56,090 bases of DNA from Candidatus Brockarchaeota archaeon (lineage in GTDB: Archaea > Thermoproteota > EX4484-205 > JAAOZP01), in the NCBI GenBank assembly GCA_017601395.1, contig JAFNIQ010000005.1:1-56090 (forward strand). Reading direction: 5' to 3'. The position numbers and the translations under genes were made by a program. The notes beneath the pieces were generated by a model. It worked only from the letters and a program-made list of their open reading frames with translations, did not search any database and was not told the DNA's origin. This document shows, one piece after another, positions 21,038 through 45,591 of this stretch (its first letter is position 1; each line of letters begins with the position of its first letter).

Positions 21038-21241
21038 TTAGTCAAGCATGTTTAGATAGCTTTCCAATTCCGATATGCGCTGTTTAACCTTGCTTAATAT
21101 TTCCCTCAGCTCTTCGAAGTCTCCACGCGATAAAGCAGTATTCAGGCTCTGAACGATCTTCGATAATTCTTCAGCACACTTTATTGTCTGCTCAATCCTT
21201 CCACATGCTTCTTTTTTAGCCTGAGTCGGCTCTTCCCGCAT
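21038..21241 (-). CDS. Small coiled-coil hypothetical protein
   Basis: 67 aa with a heptad pattern; overlaps the end of the upstream gene. Confidence 0.5.
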   Translation of the reverse strand: MREEPTQAKKEACGRIEQTIKCAEELSKIVQSLNTALSRGDFEELREILSKVKQRISELESYLNMLD

Positions 21242-21851
21242 TTTTAACCACCTGTAGCGCCACCTTATAAATGTCTTTCAGGCCAGCCTCCCCGCCCATC
21301 ATCCCAATGCCAGCGGCGGCTGAACCATGGAATGCTTCGCCCAAAGCCTTTAGAATAAGCTTGTCATCAACAGGCTTCTGCCTACCCATCAGCATGTTTA
21401 CGATGAGAAAAGCCTCCTCGTCTGAAGCTTTATTGAGAAGCCCCGTTAAGCTTTTAACCTTGAAGGCGATACTGCTCTTCCCACTTATCCTGCAAGCTTC
21501 AAGCATTCCCAGATAAGCCTGGTCGATGCTCAACCCTTTTTCGAGAAGTATGCTGCTCCTCCTGCTTAAAACATCCCTCAGCCTTCCGGATTGCACTAAT
21601 CCTTCAGCCTCATCCTGTTTAAGAAGAGTTATTCCGGCCAAGGCTTCTGAAACAATTCTCCTCATCAAGTATGTCCCGATAAGCCGCGAAGCCTCTCCGA
21701 AATCCATTCTCATTATCCTGAGAAGGGTTTCGAGGCAATCGGCGTCAACCTTTTTAAACAAGGCAGCCATTTCCCGGACAGCATCCTGCTCTCCCAACAC
21801 GCTTAACCGGTTTAGCACCTCAGCCACATCCCTGAACCCCCTGGCACCCAT
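21216..21851 (-). CDS. Stand-alone homolog of the N-terminal DNA-binding domain of ATP-dependent DNA ligase
   Basis: F..VAEVLNRL.. and LSIDQAYLGMLEACRISGKSSIAFKVKSLTGLLNKASDEEAFLIVNMLMGR..ILKALGEAF parallel the archaeal ligase DBD (LTV.EVY..L..IA..SG.GS...K...LAGLL..A.P.EA..LVR...GR). No KxDG catalytic domain. Confidence 0.6.
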   Translation of the reverse strand: MGARGFRDVAEVLNRLSVLGEQDAVREMAALFKKVDADCLETLLRIMRMDFGEASRLIGTYLMRRIVSEALAGITLLKQDEAEGLVQSGRLRDVLSRRSSILLEKGLSIDQAYLGMLEACRISGKSSIAFKVKSLTGLLNKASDEEAFLIVNMLMGRQKPVDDKLILKALGEAFHGSAAAGIGMMGGEAGLKDIYKVALQVVKNAGRADSG

Positions 21852-34779: not shown

Positions 34780-35616
34780 CCATAGAGAATCCTAAGCATA
34801 CTTGGCGGGATCGGCGAGGAATACATTGAGCAGAGGATTATGCTTGAGAAAGCGTTGGTCAAGTCAAGGTTGATCCAGACTGGGATCTACCCAATCCTGA
34901 CAAGGAGCAGGTAATTTAAAACTAACCTTGGAGTCTGAATTATCTCGAACAATCCTTTAAGACTTTCAAGATAACCACTTAACACTTTTAAAATAGAGGA
35001 TAAGGTTGGGGATGGCCATGGACAAGTCTCCCCGGGCCATTATTGGGTTCAGGTGATTAGCGAGGCCTTGGGAGAGAAGGTAGATGAGGGCCTTAGGATT
35101 TTGAAGCCTGAGGAAAGGCCTCTCACCTTCGAGAATGTGGAGGCGGGGAAAACTACATTCTGATTCTGAGAGACGTTAACGTGGAGAACTTCTTTGAGCG
35201 CGTTAAGATCAGGGATGCATCAGGCGAATACGAGAAGACAATTAGCGAGTGGCTTTCGGAGAAGTACGGACTTTCGGAATTCTCGTTCACGAAAGAAATT
35301 GGTGACACTTACTTAGTTATGGGCGATGAGAAAGTCGCTAAAGTGGAGGCGGGCCTTAAGGGAGGGCCCGGCTACTCTTACCTTGAATTTAAGATCGTTG
35401 ATCTTAATGGGGAGGCGCACATTTTCCATATCGGATGGAAAAATGGTGAGCCGAGTTTGCGAAACTGCGAAACTGCCATTCGAAGAAAGGATAAGAAAAC
35501 ACATGGAGCTAGAAAACAAGTATCTTAGAGCATGGGGAAACTTCCTCCTAAAAGCACTGGAGCTTCGCAGGAAATACTCAAACGTAAAATTTTGGTTTAC
35601 AATCGAAATGATTTAA
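34780..35616 (+). pseudogene. Fragmented remnants resembling polymorphic-toxin C-terminal regions, plus a possible immunity-gene tail
   Basis: ILGGIGEEYI resembles ALGSFGEEIF of the intact large protein. The frameshifted VSPGHYWVQV...GENYILILRDVNVENFF...FSFTKE resembles LEPGIYLIRV...GEDVEVTILQYNYVLNF...FSFSEG. Confidence 0.45.
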
Positions 35617-35884
35617 CTAAGCATTAAGATACTCCTAGCCTACCCTAGGTTAAGGCCTTGATTCACCGGTCTTTACACCGACCTACCTTTAGCGATCCTT
35701 GCATATCCTTCCTTATTAGAAGGACATCTGGTTTGGGGGGGAGACGATTATGAAGACGCGTTTTAGAGCTAAAATGCTGATTATCTGTGTTTGCTCTCTT
35801 TAACGTATCACATTATAAAAAATTAGTGCGTTAAGATAGAGTTGGAAAACGGTTAAAAACAGATGTTTAGCTTTATGGAGGAGT

Positions 35885-36583
35885 ATGGTTACTGCGGGAA
35901 AGATATTCAGGCTGGACGAATACTTGCCTCAGAGCGATATTGCTCAGAGGCTTAAGGGCTACAGGGTTGAAACCCCGCTTGAAGGGGTTGACCTGAGCCT
36001 GGTGACTGAGATAGCTGAGTTGAGGGCTTCTCAAAACATGCTGGAGGGGGTTATTAGCAGGGACGTGCCCTTGACGATCAGGAGGAGGGATAGGACGGAG
36101 ATAGTTGCTAAAACGGTCGACTCGGTTTTCAGCTTCGTCTTCAGGAGGAGGAGAGTCTTTCTCATAGTTTTGGAGAAGAAGCCGGTTGCAAACATGGTTG
36201 CCAACATGTTCAGCCAAGTGATCTTTCTTAAAAGCGGCAGGATTGTCGAGGCGAGGATTTCTCCCGAGGTGATGCTGAACTATCATAATGCGAACAGCGA
36301 TGCTGCTAAAGTGGTTTTCTTCGACGATGTCGACATCCCCAATGTTAAGAAGCTCTCCCTATATGGTCCCTCGCTCGCGAACACTAGCCTGTTTACAGAA
36401 TATCTTAAACATGGGAACATATGGTACATCGTAATCGCGCATAGAAAAACTGGCTTGGTGGCTGGAATAACTAGGGATGCCGTCGTAACGATCTTCAGCA
36501 GGATAGACCCCGCTTCATTCATAAGGTTCTCCGTCGAGGAGATCATTCCCCTGATTGAAGAATCCGAGACCCCTAAGTCGTAG
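35885..36583 (+). CDS. Conserved-looking archaeal hypothetical protein; target of the 3'-end duplication
   Basis: GGAGGAG SD before the ATG; 232-aa intact ORF; its 3' ~235 bp recurs at 43872-44119. Confidence 0.8.
   Translation: MVTAGKIFRLDEYLPQSDIAQRLKGYRVETPLEGVDLSLVTEIAELRASQNMLEGVISRDVPLTIRRRDRTEIVAKTVDSVFSFVFRRRRVFLIVLEKKPVANMVANMFSQVIFLKSGRIVEARISPEVMLNYHNANSDAAKVVFFDDVDIPNVKKLSLYGPSLANTSLFTEYLKHGNIWYIVIAHRKTGLVAGITRDAVVTIFSRIDPASFIRFSVEEIIPLIEESETPKS
36348..36570 (+). repeat. Copy 1 of the duplicated gene 3' end
   Basis: Aligns to 43872-44094 at a constant offset of 7524 bp. Confidence 0.95.
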
Positions 36584-36637
36584 AGAGCTTATTTACGGTT
36601 ATGCTTAAATATCTTTTACTGAATAGATGAAGCGGAA

Positions 36638-37300
36638 ATGATACAGGAGTTAAGAAAAAAGTTCACGGATTCGATAGAATATCTTCGCAAGATGAGTTTC
36701 TTTCAAGATTACTCTGAATTATCCTCGGAGGAAATCTTCAACGAGATACTTAAGGGTGAAATTACATACGCATATTGGTGGGAAGAGTGGGAGCGGAGGA
36801 AACCTCGTCTCCGAGGACCTCTCCATCACATCATGGAAGGATATGAGGAGGAATTGATGAAGGCCAGCGATGCCTCCATAGACTATATCATAATTCCATT
36901 CGATACTAAGAGAACGGTGACGGAGGACTATGAGACATGGTTGGGTAAGGGGTTAGGCATAACTATGTTGAAAAGGTATGCCAAGATATCTCGAGGGGTC
37001 TTCCAGCCTAAGGACATAGAGGAGGAGTGTAGCTTTCCCAATTTCGATCCCGAGTTGGGAAAGGAATGGTTCTCCTACAAAGTTTACTTTATCTTCATGA
37101 ACGAGAGACATTACACAAAAATCATCCTATGGCACGATTTCTTCGAGGATCTCGGTCTGAAAAAGATAAATGAGTTGATAAAGGATACAGGATATCAATA
37201 TTATCGCATTGATCATGAACTAGTCATGGTTGTAGTGCTGACTGAGGAGGAGGCAAAAAAACTAATGAAGGAGAGGAACTGGAGGTTCCGCCCGGTCTAG
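36638..37300 (+). CDS. Hypothetical cytoplasmic protein, candidate immunity protein
   Basis: 220 aa, acidic and aromatic-rich, no signal or TM segment. Its TAG abuts the stop of the toxin-like gene; own TATA-like TTAAATA upstream. Confidence 0.6.
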   Translation: MIQELRKKFTDSIEYLRKMSFFQDYSELSSEEIFNEILKGEITYAYWWEEWERRKPRLRGPLHHIMEGYEEELMKASDASIDYIIIPFDTKRTVTEDYETWLGKGLGITMLKRYAKISRGVFQPKDIEEECSFPNFDPELGKEWFSYKVYFIFMNERHYTKIILWHDFFEDLGLKKINELIKDTGYQYYRIDHELVMVVVLTEEEAKKLMKERNWRFRPV

Positions 37301-40300
37301 CTATCCCACTGGCTTGTGATAATAGACTGTTGTTCCGCCGATTATGTCGAAGTAAACGACAACGGCCCAGTAGCCCTCGATCTCACCAGGCCCGATGATC
37401 ACGGGGTTACCGTTACCATCAGTGAATTGAAGTTTGCCTCCCTTACTGAATAATTCATTAATCGAGTTCTTATATTTTATCGCGTCTTCTGTGGCACTAT
37501 CGAGATAATCGCCGATGAGATTCGAACTCTTAGTTGATTTGATCGAAATGATTATGTACTCACCACTTAACTTTCTACGGAGTATCACATCCAGCTCTCC
37601 CGTCTCAGTTGGCACTCTCGTGCGCACGAATTCCGTATCCTCTAGCCCAGATATCTGATTGTTTATTGCTGCATTTGCAAATATTTCCTCCCCAAAGCTT
37701 CCCAATGCCTTCGGTGAGGCATCCACGATCTCTTGGAGTTGCTCCGGGACTAGCATTGAGAGTGACCTGTGCCATATTTCGACGCTCTTTAGCACCGTAA
37801 TGTCATCAGGTATTTTAACTAGAAGTTCGCTAGTACTACCCATAGCAAATTTTTTCCTACCGGAGCTGGTTTCGTAACATGCTAGTAGCAGCAACTCGCC
37901 GCTTCCAACCCTATGCCTTAGGTCCTGAACGTTATCATATCCAAAGATTTCCTCCAGCTCTTCAATTAAAGAGATACTTGATTGACCTCTCTTTAGCTGG
38001 ATATTAAGCTCATAAGCCCCCCACACGTTCCAGTCCTTGATATGAATTGGAACTTTCATCGGATGAGGCTTTCCATATTCATAGTCTATAATCAGCGTGT
38101 TCCCCTCAACTCTAAATTCAATAACAGGATGCGCCTGTCCCCCGATAAGAACAGAAACAGTCTTGTCCTCATGGAATATAAGATATGTCTCGCGTCCCCC
38201 TTGCTTTCCGATGCTCTTATTTTTGAGCTTTACCTTCACGGATGCCCTATGATTATTACTCCACGTACTCGGCTCAACTTCCCCTAGTTCTATCTTCCCC
38301 CATGAGCCGTCCGGCCTCATTATCCAGAAACCTTCAGAAAAGCTGAAACGGTAGTTATTACCTATACACTTGAAATTTAATACGTAATTATATTGGAGGA
38401 TGGTGACTTCCACGTCCTCTCCTACTAGCTCGGCCTTAAACTCTTTTGGAATGGTAGTGTGAAGCTTGCTGGCCGCATTCTTCTTATGGCTCCACTCAAA
38501 AATCTTCCCATCTTTTCTCTTCACCCTTATTAAGTAAATCCCTGGCTCTAGCGTAATGTCCGATCTGCTGATCACACCATAATCGGGCACGGTTTCACTA
38601 AACTTGGCGAGGACTACTTCGATATCGGCCTTCACCCTGAGCAATATCTCCTCAAACTTGAGTCTAAGTTCCTCGGGCGATAGCTCTGCAATCTTTGATA
38701 ACAGCTCTGCCATCGCCTTTAGCCTTTGCTCGTCGAGTTTCGGCAACATTTCCACAAGGCTTTCCACCCATGCATTGAAGGCTTCTGAGTTCTTCAAGAT
38801 TATCGTGATCAGCACGTCGGCCATGATCTTGCCATATTGCCGTATTCCAACGACCTTAACATATTTATCGAGGAAATCAAGTCCATTCTTGGAGGAGCTC
38901 ATCTTAGTCAGGACGCCCTTAAGGTCCTCAAGCCGATCCTTCTCTAGGTTCAGCTCCGCCAGTTCTAATATAGTCTCGGCCGCCTTATCCATTTCCTCCG
39001 CATCGAGCTCCTTCATCAACTCCACGATGATTTTCGCCGCGCTGCTCGATGTTGATAATATCCGAAGGTAGCCATCAAGGAGCTTAACAGTGCTCTCGGA
39101 ATTTCTGAGATTAATCAGCACCCTTCTGAAGACAGTGAGCTCGCTCTCATCAAACTCGAGAAACTTAGGGATTATCTCAGTGATTACTTTCTTCAATAGC
39201 TCTGAATCTTTAATGTTGCCTGTTAACTTCAGGAATTCTTCAGCAAGTCCCCTGTCTTTACTACTTATTTCTTGAATATCCTTGAGGAACTTCTCGAGCT
39301 TCTCATGCCCTAGGTTCTTAATTGACTCCCCATACGCCCTAATTAAGCTGAAGAAAGTTTCTTCCCTAAGCCCCAATCTCCCCGATATCTCCAGCGCCCT
39401 ATCTACATAATCTTCAGGAGATCCCATGTTATCCAGCACAGATTTGATAGATGGCTCATTCTCCACGATTGAGCCTAAGTATTTCGTAAAGCCTTCGCTT
39501 TGCTCAAAAATCGCGATCATGCATGCGAGTCTCCTTGCCACGAGTCTAGCTCTCACCTGCTTGATTAGTAAGGCTCCGAGATCCCATATCGCTGGAGTTA
39601 ACCAGTTGTAGATTCCCCTCAATACCTCCTTTATCTTTCCACCTAGGGAGAGGAGCTTTGGCCCATGGCTGAGGAACTTGTAAAAGATCACCTCGTATTC
39701 TATCAGGGAGGTCGCGGCCCCGACCAGTCTTCCTATTGCCCTCCCTTTCTCGTATTCGGTTGCATCCTCTCTGCCAAATGCTATAAATATGTCTCTCACC
39801 GTGATGTCTGCGAGGAGGTCGAGCCCGGTGTTCCCCATGACGAGTAATTGGCTCTCCTTTACCTTCTCCTTAAGCCTCTGGAAGAAAGAATAGGTCCGCA
39901 TATACCCGAAGTAGGAGGCTCTCTGTGAGAACCCTTCGAACTCCTCAGCAACTTTATCCATCACTGCATAAGTTGAGTAAGCGTCAAACAATTCCCTGAC
40001 GTTCGCTAGCGTGCCTACCATTAGACCTATGAGCACTCCTGTTGTAACTATCTTTTTTACGTAATGAAGCAGAGAGCCTCCAGCAGTCGGTATTGCCAGT
40101 ATGATCATTACTGTTGCGGTGATTATTATCCCGGGCAGTTTTTCCTGGACTCCATCCCAGAAGCCCTTCCAGAATTCTGAAACCTTACCCGCAGTACTCA
40201 CCAAGAGCGTTGAGATAATCCTGTTTCCGTATTTCAGGCGGATGAGAATTAAAGGGCTTGCGCTCTCAAGCTGAATAATGTTCATAGGGATTGAGCCATA

Positions 40301-42409
40301 GGCCGGGATGCTGAGGACACTGCTCTTCGGCAGAACTCCAACTATTGGTCCCTGGAGGACTTCGAGCTCGTAAGCCATATTCCTTGCAGCATAGTTCTTG
40401 ACTAAGACACCCTTAACCAGGTCTCCTTGGCATATGAGCGGACGGTAAATGAGCTCTATTGTTTTCCCATGCTTAACCCTTGTCGTGGCTTTGTTAAGAT
40501 CCCACTTCTTAACCCCCGTATCCTCATACTTATAGTCATAGTCTTCCCAGTTGCTATGCTTCAGTTGCTCGTAGAGATCATCGCTGACTGTTGCGATTTC
40601 AGACTGGTTGAGAACCTCCTCCTTTAACAGCTTAACCTCGTAGCCCGGTGGTATTCTGCTAGGCTCTAATCTCTCGTCTTCGTTTAAGTGAAAGAGCTTC
40701 TTAACTTCGTCCTCTCTCAAAACTCTTTCGCATAGGAAGCGGGGCTTAACGTCGAGGAGCATGTATCTCACTTCCGGAACCTTGGGGAAAATCTCCGCAA
40801 TGTTGCTCGCATTCCCTAAAGTCAGCGTGAAGCCATTGGGGGAGATGGGGATTAAGCTTAGTCCGTCGAAGAAACTCATGGATGGAGGTGCCAGACAATT
40901 CTTCATCAGGTAGAGCTTAACTTGCGTCGCACCCTGATAGCTGGGGACAAAGACCCTCTTGGTCTCCTCATAGCCTTCAACCTCTACTAAGTACGTCCTC
41001 CATTCCTCCGGAGTTACGAAGTTTGTGGTCGAGATCGTTATAAGCGCTGTGTTCGCATGCTTCCTCCCCTCAAGATCGTAGTAGACCGCTGTAACGTTAA
41101 CTTTAGCGATGGGAGTGAGAAGCTTGGTTATTACGTTTCCTTCCCAGGTGTGCCAGACCCTTCCGACGTCAAGCTGCTTCTCCTCAACATCGCCGGTTAT
41201 GAATAGCTTAACGTCTCTGGCCTCCTGCCCGCCGGTGTTCACCAAAGTTATCGTGAGGTTCGCGAACTTAGCTAAGGCCTTGGCTTCGAGCTCAACCCTC
41301 AGCTTAGGAGCCTCAGGTAAAACTGTTATGACGTAGGTTACTGTTTTCCCACCGTTCCAGAACACTACGTCCAAGCTCTTGGGCTCGACGACGGCAAAAT
41401 AGATGGTAATCTGGTAGACTCCTGGCCTCTTAGCTCTAAGGTATAGGTATGATGCTGGGCATCCCGAGCCATATGAGAAGCCAACTGGAGGGGGAGTCCA
41501 CGCTTCAAACGCTTCTTCGTCCGAAAACCTTGCTCCAAGCAGGACCCTGAAGCCTTTAGCCTCCTGAGGATTCCTTATCTGAGCACTTATCGTTATTACA
41601 TCTCCCATTTTGACCTTCGTAGATGAGATCCCCGTGTCAACGACAAGGGGATCATGTGCGGGGAGCAGGACTCTGAACTCGCATACCTGTGACTCTACTG
41701 CTTCACGCGTCTCCTCGAAGTGACCAGACACAGCAATGATAAAGCTCTCAAAGCCAAAGTTACCTTGGGTTAAGTTAGAAAAGAGCCCGATGTTCATCCT
41801 AACCGTCTTGTTGAACACCTTCCCGGTCTTCAGGTCGATGAAGGTGAGAGTGTAAGCATCGGGGTCGACGACCCTAACCAGGTAGGTTCTTCTCTTGGGA
41901 TACCTATAGAGGATGTGGAAGAGGTTGGTTCCGTTGCTCTCATACTTTATCGAGTCTGCGTCAACATCTTTTCCATGAATATCAACCACACTATAGGGAA
42001 TTTCTACGGATACGCTTCCATCGTTGCTTTGGCAAACCTGAATTTCATCATACTTGGGGATTATCGTGTAGTTCTTGAACTCGTAGCTTATCCGCGACGG
42101 TAGCTCCAGAGTGTCATTAGCGTCGATCATCGCTCTTTGTATCCCATCCTTCGAATAACCTTCCGAAACTAGTTGGGCCACAAAGAGCCAAAGCCTTTTC
42201 GCAAGATCAGTCGGAAAACCTTCTGGTATAATGAAATTAGCTTCGGTTATTGAGCCGCTGGGTATTTGTCCTCTCTCAAGTTCTTCCTCAATCTCCTTGA
42301 GAGCAGCTAATGCATTCGCCTCTCCTCCGCGAACCCTGACGTATAGCATGGTATCAAAGTGTGAGGTTAGTATGAGGATTAAGATGATTATAGCTAGTAC
42401 CCTACGCAT
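37301..42409 (-). CDS. Large secreted multidomain protein with C-terminal PD-(D/E)xK-like nuclease (putative polymorphic toxin)
   Basis: Start MRRVLAIIILILIL (signal). Ig/CARDB-like LTITLVNTGGQEARDV; internal hydrophobic hairpin (~40000-40180); helical repeats; C-terminal GSFGEEIF..GELDVIL..IISIKST. Confidence 0.7.
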   Translation of the reverse strand: MRRVLAIIILILILTSHFDTMLYVRVRGGEANALAALKEIEEELERGQIPSGSITEANFIIPEGFPTDLAKRLWLFVAQLVSEGYSKDGIQRAMIDANDTLELPSRISYEFKNYTIIPKYDEIQVCQSNDGSVSVEIPYSVVDIHGKDVDADSIKYESNGTNLFHILYRYPKRRTYLVRVVDPDAYTLTFIDLKTGKVFNKTVRMNIGLFSNLTQGNFGFESFIIAVSGHFEETREAVESQVCEFRVLLPAHDPLVVDTGISSTKVKMGDVITISAQIRNPQEAKGFRVLLGARFSDEEAFEAWTPPPVGFSYGSGCPASYLYLRAKRPGVYQITIYFAVVEPKSLDVVFWNGGKTVTYVITVLPEAPKLRVELEAKALAKFANLTITLVNTGGQEARDVKLFITGDVEEKQLDVGRVWHTWEGNVITKLLTPIAKVNVTAVYYDLEGRKHANTALITISTTNFVTPEEWRTYLVEVEGYEETKRVFVPSYQGATQVKLYLMKNCLAPPSMSFFDGLSLIPISPNGFTLTLGNASNIAEIFPKVPEVRYMLLDVKPRFLCERVLREDEVKKLFHLNEDERLEPSRIPPGYEVKLLKEEVLNQSEIATVSDDLYEQLKHSNWEDYDYKYEDTGVKKWDLNKATTRVKHGKTIELIYRPLICQGDLVKGVLVKNYAARNMAYELEVLQGPIVGVLPKSSVLSIPAYGSIPMNIIQLESASPLILIRLKYGNRIISTLLVSTAGKVSEFWKGFWDGVQEKLPGIIITATVMIILAIPTAGGSLLHYVKKIVTTGVLIGLMVGTLANVRELFDAYSTYAVMDKVAEEFEGFSQRASYFGYMRTYSFFQRLKEKVKESQLLVMGNTGLDLLADITVRDIFIAFGREDATEYEKGRAIGRLVGAATSLIEYEVIFYKFLSHGPKLLSLGGKIKEVLRGIYNWLTPAIWDLGALLIKQVRARLVARRLACMIAIFEQSEGFTKYLGSIVENEPSIKSVLDNMGSPEDYVDRALEISGRLGLREETFFSLIRAYGESIKNLGHEKLEKFLKDIQEISSKDRGLAEEFLKLTGNIKDSELLKKVITEIIPKFLEFDESELTVFRRVLINLRNSESTVKLLDGYLRILSTSSSAAKIIVELMKELDAEEMDKAAETILELAELNLEKDRLEDLKGVLTKMSSSKNGLDFLDKYVKVVGIRQYGKIMADVLITIILKNSEAFNAWVESLVEMLPKLDEQRLKAMAELLSKIAELSPEELRLKFEEILLRVKADIEVVLAKFSETVPDYGVISRSDITLEPGIYLIRVKRKDGKIFEWSHKKNAASKLHTTIPKEFKAELVGEDVEVTILQYNYVLNFKCIGNNYRFSFSEGFWIMRPDGSWGKIELGEVEPSTWSNNHRASVKVKLKNKSIGKQGGRETYLIFHEDKTVSVLIGGQAHPVIEFRVEGNTLIIDYEYGKPHPMKVPIHIKDWNVWGAYELNIQLKRGQSSISLIEELEEIFGYDNVQDLRHRVGSGELLLLACYETSSGRKKFAMGSTSELLVKIPDDITVLKSVEIWHRSLSMLVPEQLQEIVDASPKALGSFGEEIFANAAINNQISGLEDTEFVRTRVPTETGELDVILRRKLSGEYIIISIKSTKSSNLIGDYLDSATEDAIKYKNSINELFSKGGKLQFTDGNGNPVIIGPGEIEGYWAVVVYFDIIGGTTVYYHKPVG

Positions 42410-43583
42410 CTTTTCCAAACCCCTTTTCTTTGAGGCTGGCACTACGCATTCCTTTTACAAATATGATGAACAAAGAGATTGTAAAAACTGCTAAGGAGAC
42501 CGTTAAGAACCTCATCATATTAAGTTCTTCGGCTAGCTTCTTGGCTTCCTCAACTTCATTTAGACATCTCTTTTCATAAGCCTCAAGCGAAGCTTTTAGA
42601 ACGGTTATTTCAACCTCCTTGTTGTGGAGCTTATGTCCAAAGGTTTCTCGCTCCAGCCTAGAGTTATTCAGCATCGCCTTCAGGAACTTGTTCTCATCTA
42701 TAAGCCGGAGATATTTGGAGAAGATGGTTTCGCTGAGCTTGACAGTTAGAGTTGAGGTCGAGTTTAAGGTTCTAGCGCTCAGCATAAGCCTAACTGGTTC
42801 CTTGAGACCTGAGAACATTGACCAGTTAAGCATCACATTGTAAAACCCATATTCATATGTTACTTCATGATCCTTTATTAATGAGTCAGCTTGTAGAGTT
42901 GCCTTAACTTCCGCGATATTACCTGAAGCAACTATCCTAAACGTGAGCTTAAAGCCCTCTTCTCTTACGGAAATAGAATCTACAATTATCTCAGCAAATT
43001 CGACCGCTTCCTCTCCTTCAACCCTTATCATTGCACTTCCCTCCTCATACTTCTTCAATCCTTGCCTGTAACAGTCAACAAGGAAGCTTCTTCCAGAAAT
43101 CATATCACTGTCAACTGCGACCCAAAGCTGAGTCCCATTGGGCTCAAGCATGGGGTAGACGCATACGTAGAAATTGCCATTCACGACGACGTTTGGCAAT
43201 GGGACCTTAGCCCAATCCAGGGTCGCGTTCTCAAAGTGGTTGGAGATGAGGATGGAAGACCTGAAAATCGCGTTAAAATCGCTATCCCTCACCTCTATGA
43301 TGAAAGATTTCTCGCCCTTGACCAATGCGAAGCCGTAGATGAGAAGAGCGGTTATCCTCCACCTAAGGGCGGGGGGAGTGAATTTAACGGCCATCCCGTT
43401 GGGATAGTAATCGCTCCAGAAGCATTCCGCACCCCCATCGTCATAACGCAATAGTAGACTTGAATCGGGATAGATGCATGGGGTTTGAGCCAGCATCAAT
43501 AGGGACAGAAGCGCGATCTTCATTGCTTGAGCCGCGGATTTTATCTTTCCTCCAGTCCTTGATTTATCGGCCTCGCTCCTCAT
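42402..43583 (-). CDS. Secreted/anchored protein with YDDG beta-domain, coiled coil and C-terminal TM
   Basis: Probable start 43583 with TATAAAAA just upstream. Signal-like KIALLSLLML; LRYDDG..AVKFTP; heptad region; TM FLTVSLAVFTISLFIIFV. Stop overlaps the start of the large gene (ATGCGTAG). Confidence 0.7.
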   Translation of the reverse strand: MRSEADKSRTGGKIKSAAQAMKIALLSLLMLAQTPCIYPDSSLLLRYDDGGAECFWSDYYPNGMAVKFTPPALRWRITALLIYGFALVKGEKSFIIEVRDSDFNAIFRSSILISNHFENATLDWAKVPLPNVVVNGNFYVCVYPMLEPNGTQLWVAVDSDMISGRSFLVDCYRQGLKKYEEGSAMIRVEGEEAVEFAEIIVDSISVREEGFKLTFRIVASGNIAEVKATLQADSLIKDHEVTYEYGFYNVMLNWSMFSGLKEPVRLMLSARTLNSTSTLTVKLSETIFSKYLRLIDENKFLKAMLNNSRLERETFGHKLHNKEVEITVLKASLEAYEKRCLNEVEEAKKLAEELNMMRFLTVSLAVFTISLFIIFVKGMRSASLKEKGFGKDA

Positions 43584-43871
43584 ATCATTAGAGGAGGTTT
43601 GAGGATATGTTTTTATAGCATGAGGTAAGCGAAAATTTCCGCTGACAGTCAGCGAGAATTTACCAACGGAAGATTTATATAGTAGCTTCCATCGTTGAGC
43701 CCAAAATCGCCATTTTAAACTCAGTGCATTTTGACTAAAGAAAATGCGCATCCCATATCCAGCTAGCTCCCTTGAGGACTACACGTCAAGTTCATAAACC
43801 TCTACGCTGTCAACCTTAAGCCTGAAATGCCTGTCCACCACCTACTTAAACCGTCTGGAATAGCATGTGCT

Positions 43872-44119
43872 AGAAGCTCTCGCTGTACGGGCCCTCGCTC
43901 GCTAACACTAGGTCTATCCTACTGAAGATCGTTACGACGGCATCCCTAGTTATTCCAGCCACCAAGCCAGTTTTTCTATGCGCGATTACGATGTACCATA
44001 TGTTCCCATGTTTAAGATATTCTGTAAACAGGCCTGCTTCATTCATAAGGTTCTCCGTCGAGGAGATTATTCCACTAATAGAGGAATCTGAAGCGTCCAA
44101 ACCTGAGAGGAAAGCCTAG
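43872..44119 (+). repeat. Copy 2 of the duplicated gene 3' end, with a 121-bp internal inversion (43912-44032)
   Basis: 43872-43911 and 44033-44094 are direct copies (mostly synonymous differences) of 36348-36387 and 36509-36570. 43912-44032 is the reverse complement of 36388-36508 with 1 mismatch. Confidence 0.95.
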
Positions 44120-44164
44120 GCACGTCCATCTTCAACGCCTCCTTTAAAATAAAAGTCTAAGGTT

Positions 44165-44755
44165 CTATATATTGGAGAGTAGAGCATCGTATTCCTCGTC
44201 GGTTAAAGCGTCGAGTTTCTTAAGGCTTCCCACCAGGCTTTTAAAATCGATCAACTCGTGCAACGTTATTCCCTTGCTTCTCAGCCTCTCCGCAGCACTC
44301 TTGCTCTGACACATTATTACGGCAGCCTGCTCAACAACCCCTCCTTCTGAAACGATTTTACTGGCCGTCCCCAGTATCTGCCTGCCTGTCACGACGGAGT
44401 CATCGATGACTAGAACCCTATCCCCCATTTTCAACGGTCCCTCCACAAGCTTCCCCCTGCCTCTTTCCCTAATGAGCAGCATAGGCTTACGTGTCTTGAC
44501 GCAGAGGAATGACGCGTAGGGTATTCCGGCCAACGGTACTCCTGCGACGAACTCGAAGCTGTTCAACCCGACTTTCTCCCTAACGACTCTGAGAAGCCCT
44601 GATGCGACCCGGAGGAAAACAGGCGGATGGCTTAGAATCGTAGTCAGGTCGAGTACGAACGGTTGTAGAACCCCTTCATCAGTTTTATCAGGCCATGTTA
44701 AGAAGCCGCCTGTTTTAACGAGGGTTTTCGCCACGAGGTCGACTAACCTGTACAA
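44165..44755 (-). CDS. Orotate phosphoribosyltransferase-like type I PRTase (divergent)
   Basis: VAGVPLAGIP, LVEG, RVLVIDDSVVTG PRPP loop. Confidence 0.7.
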   Translation of the reverse strand: MYRLVDLVAKTLVKTGGFLTWPDKTDEGVLQPFVLDLTTILSHPPVFLRVASGLLRVVREKVGLNSFEFVAGVPLAGIPYASFLCVKTRKPMLLIRERGRGKLVEGPLKMGDRVLVIDDSVVTGRQILGTASKIVSEGGVVEQAAVIMCQSKSAAERLRSKGITLHELIDFKSLVGSLKKLDALTDEEYDALLSNI

Positions 44756-44892
44756 ATGGTTTCCCGCTTTAAGTGTAGTAGCTTATCTTTAAGCCTTTCC
44801 AACCGGTTAAAACAACAACCGTAAAGAGGATACGTTGTGCATTAAGACTGTCTTTAAGCTAAATGCTCGCTCAGCATCGTTTCTAAAATGCC

Positions 44893-45591
44893 TTACTGGC
44901 CGATTCTATATATGAAAGGCTCCCCGACTTTAAGTATTACTATCCCTATTTTCAAGCCTTTCCTCTTCACGGAGCGTTGAAAAACGGCAAGGTCCTCGCC
45001 GTGGTAGGGTATAACTATTTTAGAGTTGGAGTTTTCAGCGGATTCAACCCATGAGGCGGCGTTAAGCATAGGGTTGAAGCCTACTGGTATGAACGTTATG
45101 TCAGGCTTCTCCTCCATAGTCACCTTTTTCAAAGCCTTTGACACTGGGGAGGAGCCTGTCTGGAAAATCTTACACCCGTTTTCAAGCGTAACCATGTATG
45201 TTACTGGCGTTGAAGCCTCGGAATTTTCACTCGGATATGATTTGATTATAAGCCCGTTGCTTACGAGCAGCTTGTTAGGCTTGGCTGCAATAAGCATCTC
45301 CTTAGGGATATGCGACCGGAGAATCCTGTAGCTTGTTTCATCAGCGATTATTTTCCCAGACTTCTTTAGAAGGCAGAGCTCTGTTATCAGGTTCTCGTCG
45401 AAATGCTCAGGCTGCTCGTCGGTTATCAGGGTGTAGTCTACAGGCTCGACTTCGCCGACGTTTATCTCGGAGGGGTTGAAGAGTAGTCTTTGCGTCTGGG
45501 TTGCAACGTATACGCATGAGTATTTGTTCAACCATGTTAACACTACTTCTGATTTACTGGGTCTAACAGTATTCAAGACCGTGTTTCCCAA
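44893..45591 (-). CDS. Metallo-beta-lactamase-fold protein with degenerate metal site
   Basis: LTWL, YTLITDEQPEHFD (at the HxHxDH position), KIFQTGSS, PDITFIPVG, VIPYHG. Confidence 0.65.
   Translation of the reverse strand: MGNTVLNTVRPSKSEVVLTWLNKYSCVYVATQTQRLLFNPSEINVGEVEPVDYTLITDEQPEHFDENLITELCLLKKSGKIIADETSYRILRSHIPKEMLIAAKPNKLLVSNGLIIKSYPSENSEASTPVTYMVTLENGCKIFQTGSSPVSKALKKVTMEEKPDITFIPVGFNPMLNAASWVESAENSNSKIVIPYHGEDLAVFQRSVKRKGLKIGIVILKVGEPFIYRIGQ

Follow-up and report, generated by a model that had tools for sequence, protein, structure and literature searches.

How does a block of genes come to lie in the last codons of a conserved gene when no integrase accompanies it, and why should the middle of one of the two gene ends that bracket it be turned around? 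These questions arise from a 56,090-nt stretch of DNA (hereafter, the window) of a Candidatus Brockarchaeota archaeon (GenBank assembly GCA_017601395.1, contig JAFNIQ010000005.1), in which a cassette of three genes (g220, g1713 and g449) separates a 232-aa gene, g232, from a second copy of its own 3' end. The window is the whole of contig C147 of its assembly (G000), a metagenome-assembled genome (MAG) of 2.14 Mb in 156 contigs, 91% complete, which is scaffolded and carries 54 runs of Ns of estimated size. For comparison we used 16 genomes of the same genus (congeners), among which G010 is the nearest relative, a wider search set of 41 genomes, and public sequencing runs (X1, X2, X3 and X6), the last represented by Logan contigs, not raw reads. 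The coordinates of the repeat and of the inversion were read from the assembled contig only, and the numbers of differences in parts of the repeat and of the gene were compared by Fisher tests.

The cassette is a strain-specific insertion

The target of the insertion, g232 (35885-36583, plus strand), is a conserved single-copy archaeal gene of unassigned function that is intact in the window and has a chimeric 3' end. It was matched in 33 of the 41 genomes searched, with one copy each, split contigs aside; it belongs to no Pfam or NCBIfam family, and in the atlas it lies next to archaeal clusters without names (score 0.98). Its native neighbour is a convergent gene resembling orotate phosphoribosyltransferase (PRTase; 44165-44755, minus strand), identified by NCBIfam and by synteny. 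At all 14 same-genus loci examined, g232 is directly convergent with the PRTase gene and a gene of the metallo-beta-lactamase fold, and none of the three cargo genes stands between them. The two remaining congeners comprise a 70% complete genome without a g232 match and one in which the gene is split over two contig ends. The same three-gene order recurs at four loci from other families of the order.

Empty alleles also occur in the public data, where contigs of runs X1 and X6 connect position 36508 straight to 44033. Run X2, from the same study as X1, contains the island: a chain of short contigs, each with 3 to 11 differences (99.3-99.6% identity), spans 36520-43173. The depth of these island contigs is 5.6-10, about a quarter of the 26-27 found on both flanks, indicating that only some members of a closely related population carry the island. 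Overall, it is well supported that the interval 36568-43871 is a strain-specific insertion that sits within a conserved gene of housekeeping type, in its last codons. The initial annotation, made from the letters of the sequence, had proposed that a cassette entered a coding gene and supplied it with a replacement 3' end, and had suggested a search for empty sites, which the congeners and runs X1 and X6 provide. The insertion and the new 3' end both stand, while the DNA that demonstrably came with the insert amounts to the last five codons and the stop. These last codons (TPKS) and the stop, at 36568-36583 on the plus strand, have no counterpart in the second copy or in the relatives and are supplied by the insert. 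A tRNA or other known RNA gene at the ends of the island was also considered and discarded: the tRNA search of the window returned none, and Rfam gave no match within 35000-45000 at E <= 1.

The gene end is duplicated and one copy has an inverted centre

The copy of the gene end that belongs to g232 (copy 1; 36348-36567, plus strand) is made up of a left flank (36348-36387), a centre (36387-36509) and a right flank (36509-36567). Copy 2 starts 7524 nt further on, start to start, and consists of a native-like left flank (43872-43911, plus strand), an inverted centre (43911-44033, minus strand), and a right flank that continues into the ancestral tail EASKPERKA* (44033-44119, plus strand). The two left flanks form a direct pair of 40 nt that is 88% identical (5 mismatches, E 2.4e-7), and the right flanks form another of 59 nt, likewise 88% identical (E 6.2e-15). 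The centres pair in inverted orientation over 123 nt, one base at each end being ambiguous, with 99% identity and a single mismatch (E 1.2e-57). These inverted arms lie 7401 nt apart and bracket the cargo. Searching the whole assembly located the pieces of the repeat at no further place.

The initial annotation had described this arrangement as a repeat recurring 7524 bp downstream, with direct flanks, five differences in the first 40 bp and a central 121 bp that is flipped with one mismatch; repeat and whole-genome searches recovered each of these elements in the assembled contig. The tails differ as described (ETPKS* in copy 1, EASKPERKA* in copy 2), and the flank differences, described as mostly synonymous, proved to be so in 12 of 12 cases, all at third codon positions. 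The copies differ at 1 of 123 positions in the centre and at 12 of 99 in the flanks (Fisher p = 3e-4). At the borders of the flipped piece the two sides overlap by 1 nt each, as had been noted, and no inverted repeat of at least 5 nt was found there; at the junction 43871/43872 the overlap is 2 nt (AG). The whole near-identical stretch shared by the copies is 36380-36510, and the flipped piece ends 8 nt inside it on one side and 1-2 nt inside it on the other. Comparison of the genome with itself listed six other inverted pairs within contigs (40 to 768 nt; on C102, C119, C144 and C18).

Copy 2 represents the displaced native end of the gene

Comparison with the congeners separated the two copies. 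The tail of copy 2 matches that of G010 and of three other congeners, and the 93 nt at 44033-44125 are exactly those of G010. Of the 40 positions in the left flank of copy 2, two are unlike G010, each with a variant that other congeners also have. Counted over both flanks, copy 1 differs from G010 at 10 of 99 positions and copy 2 at 2 of 99. The divergence of copy 1 lies in a tract at 36337-36567 (plus strand), in which 20 of 231 positions differ from G010, compared with 3 of 452 elsewhere in the gene (Fisher p = 1.3e-7 against the 5' part). This 3' part of copy 1 is no nearer to any of 14 congeners than it is to G010. Since copy 2 shares its tail and the adjoining sequence with G010 and copy 1 is divergent, copy 2 appears to be the native end and copy 1 the island-linked one. 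We therefore regard it as well supported, on these alignments, that copy 2 is the displaced native 3' end and that g232 now ends on a divergent 3' part.

The left boundary of the divergent tract does not coincide with that of the repeat, as it begins 11 nt upstream of the repeat border, which argues against an att-type crossover at that border. A further haplotype is represented by P0002, a 103-residue public protein encoded on another contig of 7824 nt, which carries the same insert-derived tail, ETPKS. At two places P0002 departs from the window, with Ile instead of Val and Pro-Ser-Ser instead of Pro-Ala-Ser, and these are the states of the X2 contig at 36344 and 36511-36512. Native-like residues extend further to the right in P0002, so that the left crossover points differ between island-bearing haplotypes. 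This suggests that the left junction was formed by homologous recombination with variable crossover points and not by a fixed att crossover.

The flipped centre differs in origin from the flanks around it. Read in reverse, it has the base of copy 1 at all seven sites that separate copy 1 from G010, in addition to one private synonymous change. Had the native remnant simply been inverted in place, its centre would still show the native bases. These alleles therefore exclude such an event and leave three options: the centre was copied in reverse at the time of joining, from copy 1 or from the incoming DNA, it was flipped and then converted by copy 1, or it is an error of assembly.

No recombinase was found on the cassette or around it

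The absence of an integrase on board, as proposed by the initial annotation, was borne out by four hidden Markov model libraries and two structure models. None of the three cargo proteins matched a family in Pfam, NCBIfam, PHROGs or PADLOC. A confident model of g220 gave no recombinase-like match, and that of the C-terminal part of g1713 gave nuclease-fold matches only, the middle of g1713 lying outside the models. No integrase or transposase was found among 24 further open reading frames (ORFs) between 20.6 and 56 kb, which include genes for histidine biosynthesis, ABC transport, geranylgeranyl reductase, Trm1, FtsJ, S8e and SMC. An invertase was likewise found neither in the profile searches of the cargo nor among these ORFs, and ten proteins of four other cassettes, described below, contain no recombinase domain. 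As far as searches of sequence and fold reach, an integrase-free reading is supported.

A proposed joining by homology on the left and template switching on the right

How, then, might the cassette have been joined? The insert would have arrived attached to a divergent version of the 3' part of g232. Its left end would have been fixed by ordinary homologous recombination, with a crossover between 36262 and 36337 in the window and further right in another haplotype. The right end would have been joined illegitimately, through the 2-nt overlap, to the resident gene at position 36348, so that the resident 3' end (copy 2) was displaced downstream as a dead remnant while the gene stayed intact. In the course of this joining the new strand may have been templated first by 40 nt of the resident gene, next by the incoming copy, in its opposite strand, and then by the resident gene again, each switch at an overlap of 1 nt, which would give a 121-nt flipped centre with the alleles of copy 1. 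No recombinase of its own would be needed, as host recombination would suffice, much as in homology-facilitated illegitimate recombination. We favour template switching because three adjacent junctions have minimal overlap and the inverted patch is templated. Taken as a whole, the insertion of a multicopy module by homologous joining on the left and illegitimate joining on the right, with the flipped centre as a template-switch scar of the same joining, is a reading whose order of events and mechanism we give about an even chance of being correct. As a probable consequence, 32 nt is the longest perfect direct match that remains for excision, and a 123-bp inverted repeat brackets the cargo. The inversion might, as the initial annotation proposed, lock the island in or let it flip.

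Several observations weigh against this account. The run contigs do not span 43911 or 44033, and the right junction of X2 may differ; among the Logan contigs of the runs examined, none lies over 43681-44043, which includes the right-hand inversion junctions, and the search of public runs found none with more than 53% of the words of 43600-44400. P0001, an ORF spanning the flipped centre, is recorded from the window's contig only, and the assembly is, as stated above, scaffolded with N-runs. Leaving and re-entering at exactly equivalent positions of the two copies would be an unusual coincidence for template switching. The majority (empty) allele of X2 has the base of copy 1 at 36364, so that the population has a partial mixture of "donor" and "native" alleles. 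Moreover, the divergence of copy 1 (8.7%) is only about three times the local background between G000 and G010 (2-5%; on the right-hand side of the island, 11-23 differences per 500 nt). Finally, the donor arrangement was not found, and the relatives of g220 elsewhere are only 41-58% identical. The insert-derived tail, searched as a degenerate pattern, had 0 matches in genome_contigs and 0 in viral_contigs; a scan of metagenome_contigs with g220 returned three loci, all 41% identical and none adjoining a g232 homologue; and the protein database holds one further member of the 90% cluster of g220, its other relatives being at most 58% identical.

Within a real insertion, the 121-nt inversion could be an artefact of assembly or scaffolding and the true copy 2 a plain direct remnant, which we consider unlikely. 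Several of the N-runs of this fragmented MAG stand behind pieces of about 147 nt, and the longest exact overlap of contig ends in the assembly, 120 nt, is close to the size of the flipped piece; the record of P0001 from one contig and the two junctions without coverage in independent run contigs point in the same direction. Graph-based assemblers, however, require reads that hold both junction words, and the flipped piece is shorter than the stretch that the copies share. It also stands one synonymous base apart from copy 1, so the same collapsed node was not simply reused, and its junctions are free of Ns, gaps and duplicated overlap letters. Among the repeats listed by the self-comparison of the genome, whose other inverted pairs were not inspected one by one, no second one has direct flanks around a flipped middle.

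The flip could also have taken two steps, in which the native centre was inverted in place, by breakage and rejoining or by a local template switch, and was later made identical to copy 1 by gene conversion between the resulting inverted repeats, possibly during flips of the 7.4-kb interval. The much greater likeness of the centres than of the flanks would be expected if the inverted repeats evolved in concert, a conversion tract would stop where the inverted homology ends, as is seen, and cassettes lie in opposite orientations at one site in two species. The differing duplications at that site nevertheless point to separate insertions, no strand-changing joints were found in run contigs, though none of these covers the right arm, and two rare events would have to fall within a time so short that the flanks of the remnant are still identical or nearly identical to G010. 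We judge this sequence of events improbable. Very unlikely, in our estimate, is a non-autonomous integrative element moved by a recombinase encoded elsewhere, for which the gene end would represent a long attL/attR pair and the flipped core an aberrant product of the recombinase. Such an element would account for the 3'-distal target in a protein gene, the stop that it supplies, the direct repeats, the empty sites in relatives and a near-identical stretch in the middle of the repeat that resembles an att core; PMC6563490 offers a precedent, in which 14 of 68 thaumarchaeal integrated mobile genetic elements (iMGEs) lie in 3'-distal regions of protein genes. It would not readily account for the lack of an integrase in the island, in four other cassettes and between 20.6 and 56 kb of the window, for a different target with each cassette copy and duplications that range from 43 to 236 nt, for insert ends that by eye have no sequence in common, for crossover points that vary between haplotypes, or for the lack of symmetric sites at the borders of the centre.

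Related cassettes occupy other gene boundaries

The cassette of the window is one of several. On contig C53 of G000, a paralogous cassette lies between 58-nt direct repeats (96.6% identical) that correspond to the 5' region of an aminotransferase-like gene. The genes flanking this site are adjacent in 9 of 9 relatives that span the locus; ten loci were searched, and the contig of G010 begins inside the gene. The C53 cassette has a different small gene downstream, on the same strand as the giant gene. In G002 and G007, a cassette is found between the end of one gene and the start of a pheT-like gene that natively overlap, and a duplication of 43-45 nt keeps both whole; the corresponding empty site is present in G000 on C116. 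In G009 (C3, locus L057), a cassette with a 78-nt repeat has an 822-aa gene on one side and a proteasome-alpha-like gene on the other. G000 itself has a cassette in the same intergenic region (C20:1-4400 and C35:1-1100), in the opposite orientation; the duplicated stretch there is another one, about 70 nt long, and takes in the first codons of the gene downstream. The opposite orientation and the different duplication indicate that this region was struck independently in the two genomes.

Target duplications measure 43-78 nt at the other sites, and up to 236 nt when the window is counted. Judged by eye, the ends of the five inserts have no sequence in common, no formal search having been made, and among the copies compared an inverted segment within the repeat occurs in the window's cassette only. 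A locus of G003 (L064; 161-nt repeat, 81%) was considered as a second replaced gene 3' end and rejected, as neither of its copies lies on a full-length gene. Together, these sites raise the possibility of an undescribed type of mobile cassette, in which a giant membrane protein with swappable C-terminal modules and its partners would spread without a recombinase of its own, at gene boundaries, through target duplications of 43-236 nt that keep both neighbours working, and in which the flipped core of the window would be a natural lock or flip site against excision. We put this forward as a tentative and rather doubtful proposal.

The cargo combines a hypervariable membrane protein with small partners

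The first cargo gene, g220 (36638-37300, plus strand), encodes an orphan 220-aa protein of a genus-restricted multicopy family and is convergent with the C-terminal module of g1713-like genes. The family has 20 matches in G000, many of them broken, and matches in 14 of the 16 congeners; at six other loci a g220-type gene adjoins matches to the C-terminal module, again convergently. An AF2 model of g220 (pLDDT 89) had no PDB match at E <= 0.001. Next to it lies g1713 (37301-42442, minus strand), a giant predicted membrane protein with an N-terminal signal or anchor, a transmembrane segment at residues 768-792, a conserved N-terminal region of about 1100 aa and a variable C-terminal region of about 600 aa. 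Among the 41 genomes searched, its family is confined to this genus and one other, with up to 17 matches per genome. Residues 1-1100 are 54-77% identical between paralogues, which do not have the last ~600 in common. At the DNA level, homology to the paralogues covers 39575-43680, a stretch common to five other contigs of G000, and all of these matches end at 43680/43681.

In the model of g1713 residues 1191-1713 (pLDDT 84), a helical portion and beta-sandwich domains are followed by a terminal domain of some 130 residues. This last domain resembled folds of the restriction-endonuclease-like type (3fov, Z 7.6; NucS 2vld, 7.1; Hjc 1ob8, 6.8; 1gef, 6.5), with Z scores of 5.7-7.6, all below 8. 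The paralogues retain a motif of the form D...E-x-K, and the window copy has Ser in place of Glu. The sub-8 Z scores and the motif provide a lead towards a restriction-endonuclease-like fold at the end of g1713, and the C-terminal domain is probably on the cytoplasmic side of the transmembrane segment. The whole 523-residue C-terminal model was of no help for the nuclease reading, as Foldseek gave only matches to tandem beta-sandwich domains (TM 0.1), and an atlas match to Tox-REase-7 is no more than a lead, its score, 0.80, being within the range reached by shuffled sequences.

The third gene, g449 (42402-43583, minus strand), encodes a predicted surface protein with a C-terminal transmembrane anchor and is always found upstream of the giant gene. 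By analogy with the C53 paralogue, translation probably starts at the methionine of MRSEADK (43583); the longest ORF reaches 43751. It is preceded by a conserved, promoter-like upstream element (43562-43680), which is 85-99% identical to its counterparts in paralogous cassettes and in which contigs of run X3 end. In that run, a marine metagenome by its record, several long contigs with a depth of about 34 end in the same 30-55 nt of the element. A 74-nt piece of it (43607-43680) also stands alone on contig C1 of G000, 99% identical, and behaves like a dispersed repeat.

Between this module and copy 2 lies a unique spacer of 191 nt (43681-43871), which ends at the illegitimate right junction 43871/43872. 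It had no match at E <= 0.01 in 15 of the 16 congeners, a single weak 27-nt match in G013 (E 0.003), and none elsewhere in G000. The idea that the spacer is a relic of a previous site found no support in the 16 congeners beyond this 27-nt match. At four paralogous loci (L038-L041; C53:8042-8310, C1:31678-31954, C20:3539-3643 and C105:1378-1545), the TATA-like end of the upstream element is followed by a conserved stretch of about 230-270 nt, in place of which the window has its spacer. A GAATTCTC..GAGAATC hairpin is found in this stretch, together with 18-nt palindromes (type GGTAAAC-N4-GTTTACC) in tandem arrays of 2-4. Rfam gave no match, and the stretch may encode an RNA or serve as a group of sites bound by proteins. 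At the boundary of g220 and g1713, 39 nt (37165-37203) match contigs of X1, X2 and X3 whose flanks differ from those of the window; we rejected a CRISPR spacer as their source, as the two flanks in the matching contigs are unlike each other.

Further features lie away from the cassette. An SMC-like gene at the end of the window's contig (53235-56090) contains an intein splicing domain (Pfam PF14890, residues 96-172). The match of a 211-aa ORF at 21219-21851 to ATP-dependent DNA ligase is restricted to the N-terminal domain (PF04675), and the ORF may be a fragment or a stand-alone domain. Elsewhere in G000, self-comparison revealed near-perfect tandem duplications of 527, 497 and 220 nt (C8:4456-5512, C95:8804-9809 and C143:3608-4065) and a 768-nt inverted repeat that reaches the start of its contig (C119:4-771/6476-7243).

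Relation to known systems

Phage 21 and e14 integrate in the icd gene of E. coli, the element supplying the end of the gene. The insertion in the window resembles such gene-3'-end integrated elements in being absent from close relatives, in keeping the gene functional through new last codons and a stop, in leaving the native end on its far side and in being flanked by direct repeats. It differs from them in having no integrase on board or nearby, in a divergent tract that starts outside the repeat, in a crossover that varies and in the inverted middle of the repeat. The repeat itself, at 220-236 nt and 88% identity, is unlike archaeal att sites, which measure up to 69 bp, with a median of 45 bp, according to the paper on the thaumarchaeal elements (PMC6563490). 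Insertion at a 3' end with a stop supplied by the element is thus known in archaea; judging from its sequence, the window would stand apart in four respects, having no integrase, a long and imperfect repeat, a crossover that is not fixed and an inverted core.

Two processes that need no dedicated recombinase offer closer comparisons. Homology-facilitated illegitimate recombination is known from naturally transformable bacteria under laboratory transformation. As there, one end in the window appears anchored by homology and the other joined at 1-2 nt of microhomology; the differences are that the event is here reconstructed for an uncultured archaeon, that the anchor region is duplicated and that an inverted templated patch is present. 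Template-switch rearrangements (replicative events of the FoSTeS/MMBIR type, and short in-place inversions) are known mainly from eukaryotes and from work on quasi-palindromes in E. coli. They have in common with the window overlaps of 1-2 nt, a short inverted segment from a nearby homologous template and a duplication alongside the insertion, and they differ in that the template here would be the other copy of the repeat, either 7.5 kb distant or brought in with the incoming DNA.

Unlike transposons, the cassettes, that of the window included, have no transposase, nor do their insert ends have a common sequence by eye. With regard to a target duplication of the transposon type, the copies in the window are 88% alike in their flanks though the insertion is younger than the split of G000 and G010, and those at C53 are 96.6% alike over 58 nt. 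As in an invertible DNA switch, inverted repeats (123-nt arms) bracket a segment.

The cargo itself recalls the VARTIG modules of Thermococcales (PMC8416519) and the polymorphic toxins (PMC3482391): a large protein, exported or in the membrane, is conserved in its N-terminal part while its C-terminal part recombines and varies, its small partners are variable, and the many copies differ between close strains. The family in the window is nevertheless distinct, with no Pfam hit and a C-terminal fold that is possibly restriction-endonuclease-like, and its copies are bracketed by duplicated host gene boundaries. Furthermore, its g220 partner is convergent, here and at six other loci, unlike the same-strand downstream immunity gene of polymorphic toxins. 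A limited search of the literature on mobile elements of Brockarchaeota, which does not prove absence, found only the description of the phylum (PMC8065059) and no account of such cassettes.

Implications

If the flip proved to be an artefact, the remaining finding would be an ordinary strain-specific island. If the structure is real, it would constitute a clean natural record of an archaeal chromosome gaining a block of genes without an integrase, by homologous joining on the left and illegitimate joining with a templated inverted patch on the right, and it would illustrate how an insert of this kind can come to resist loss. Five independent insertions, each duplicating a host gene boundary, point to an undescribed route of cassette spread in an uncultured hot-spring lineage. 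The cargo that travels in this way is an unannotated hypervariable membrane-protein system, which may serve in conflict between cells or between virus and host.

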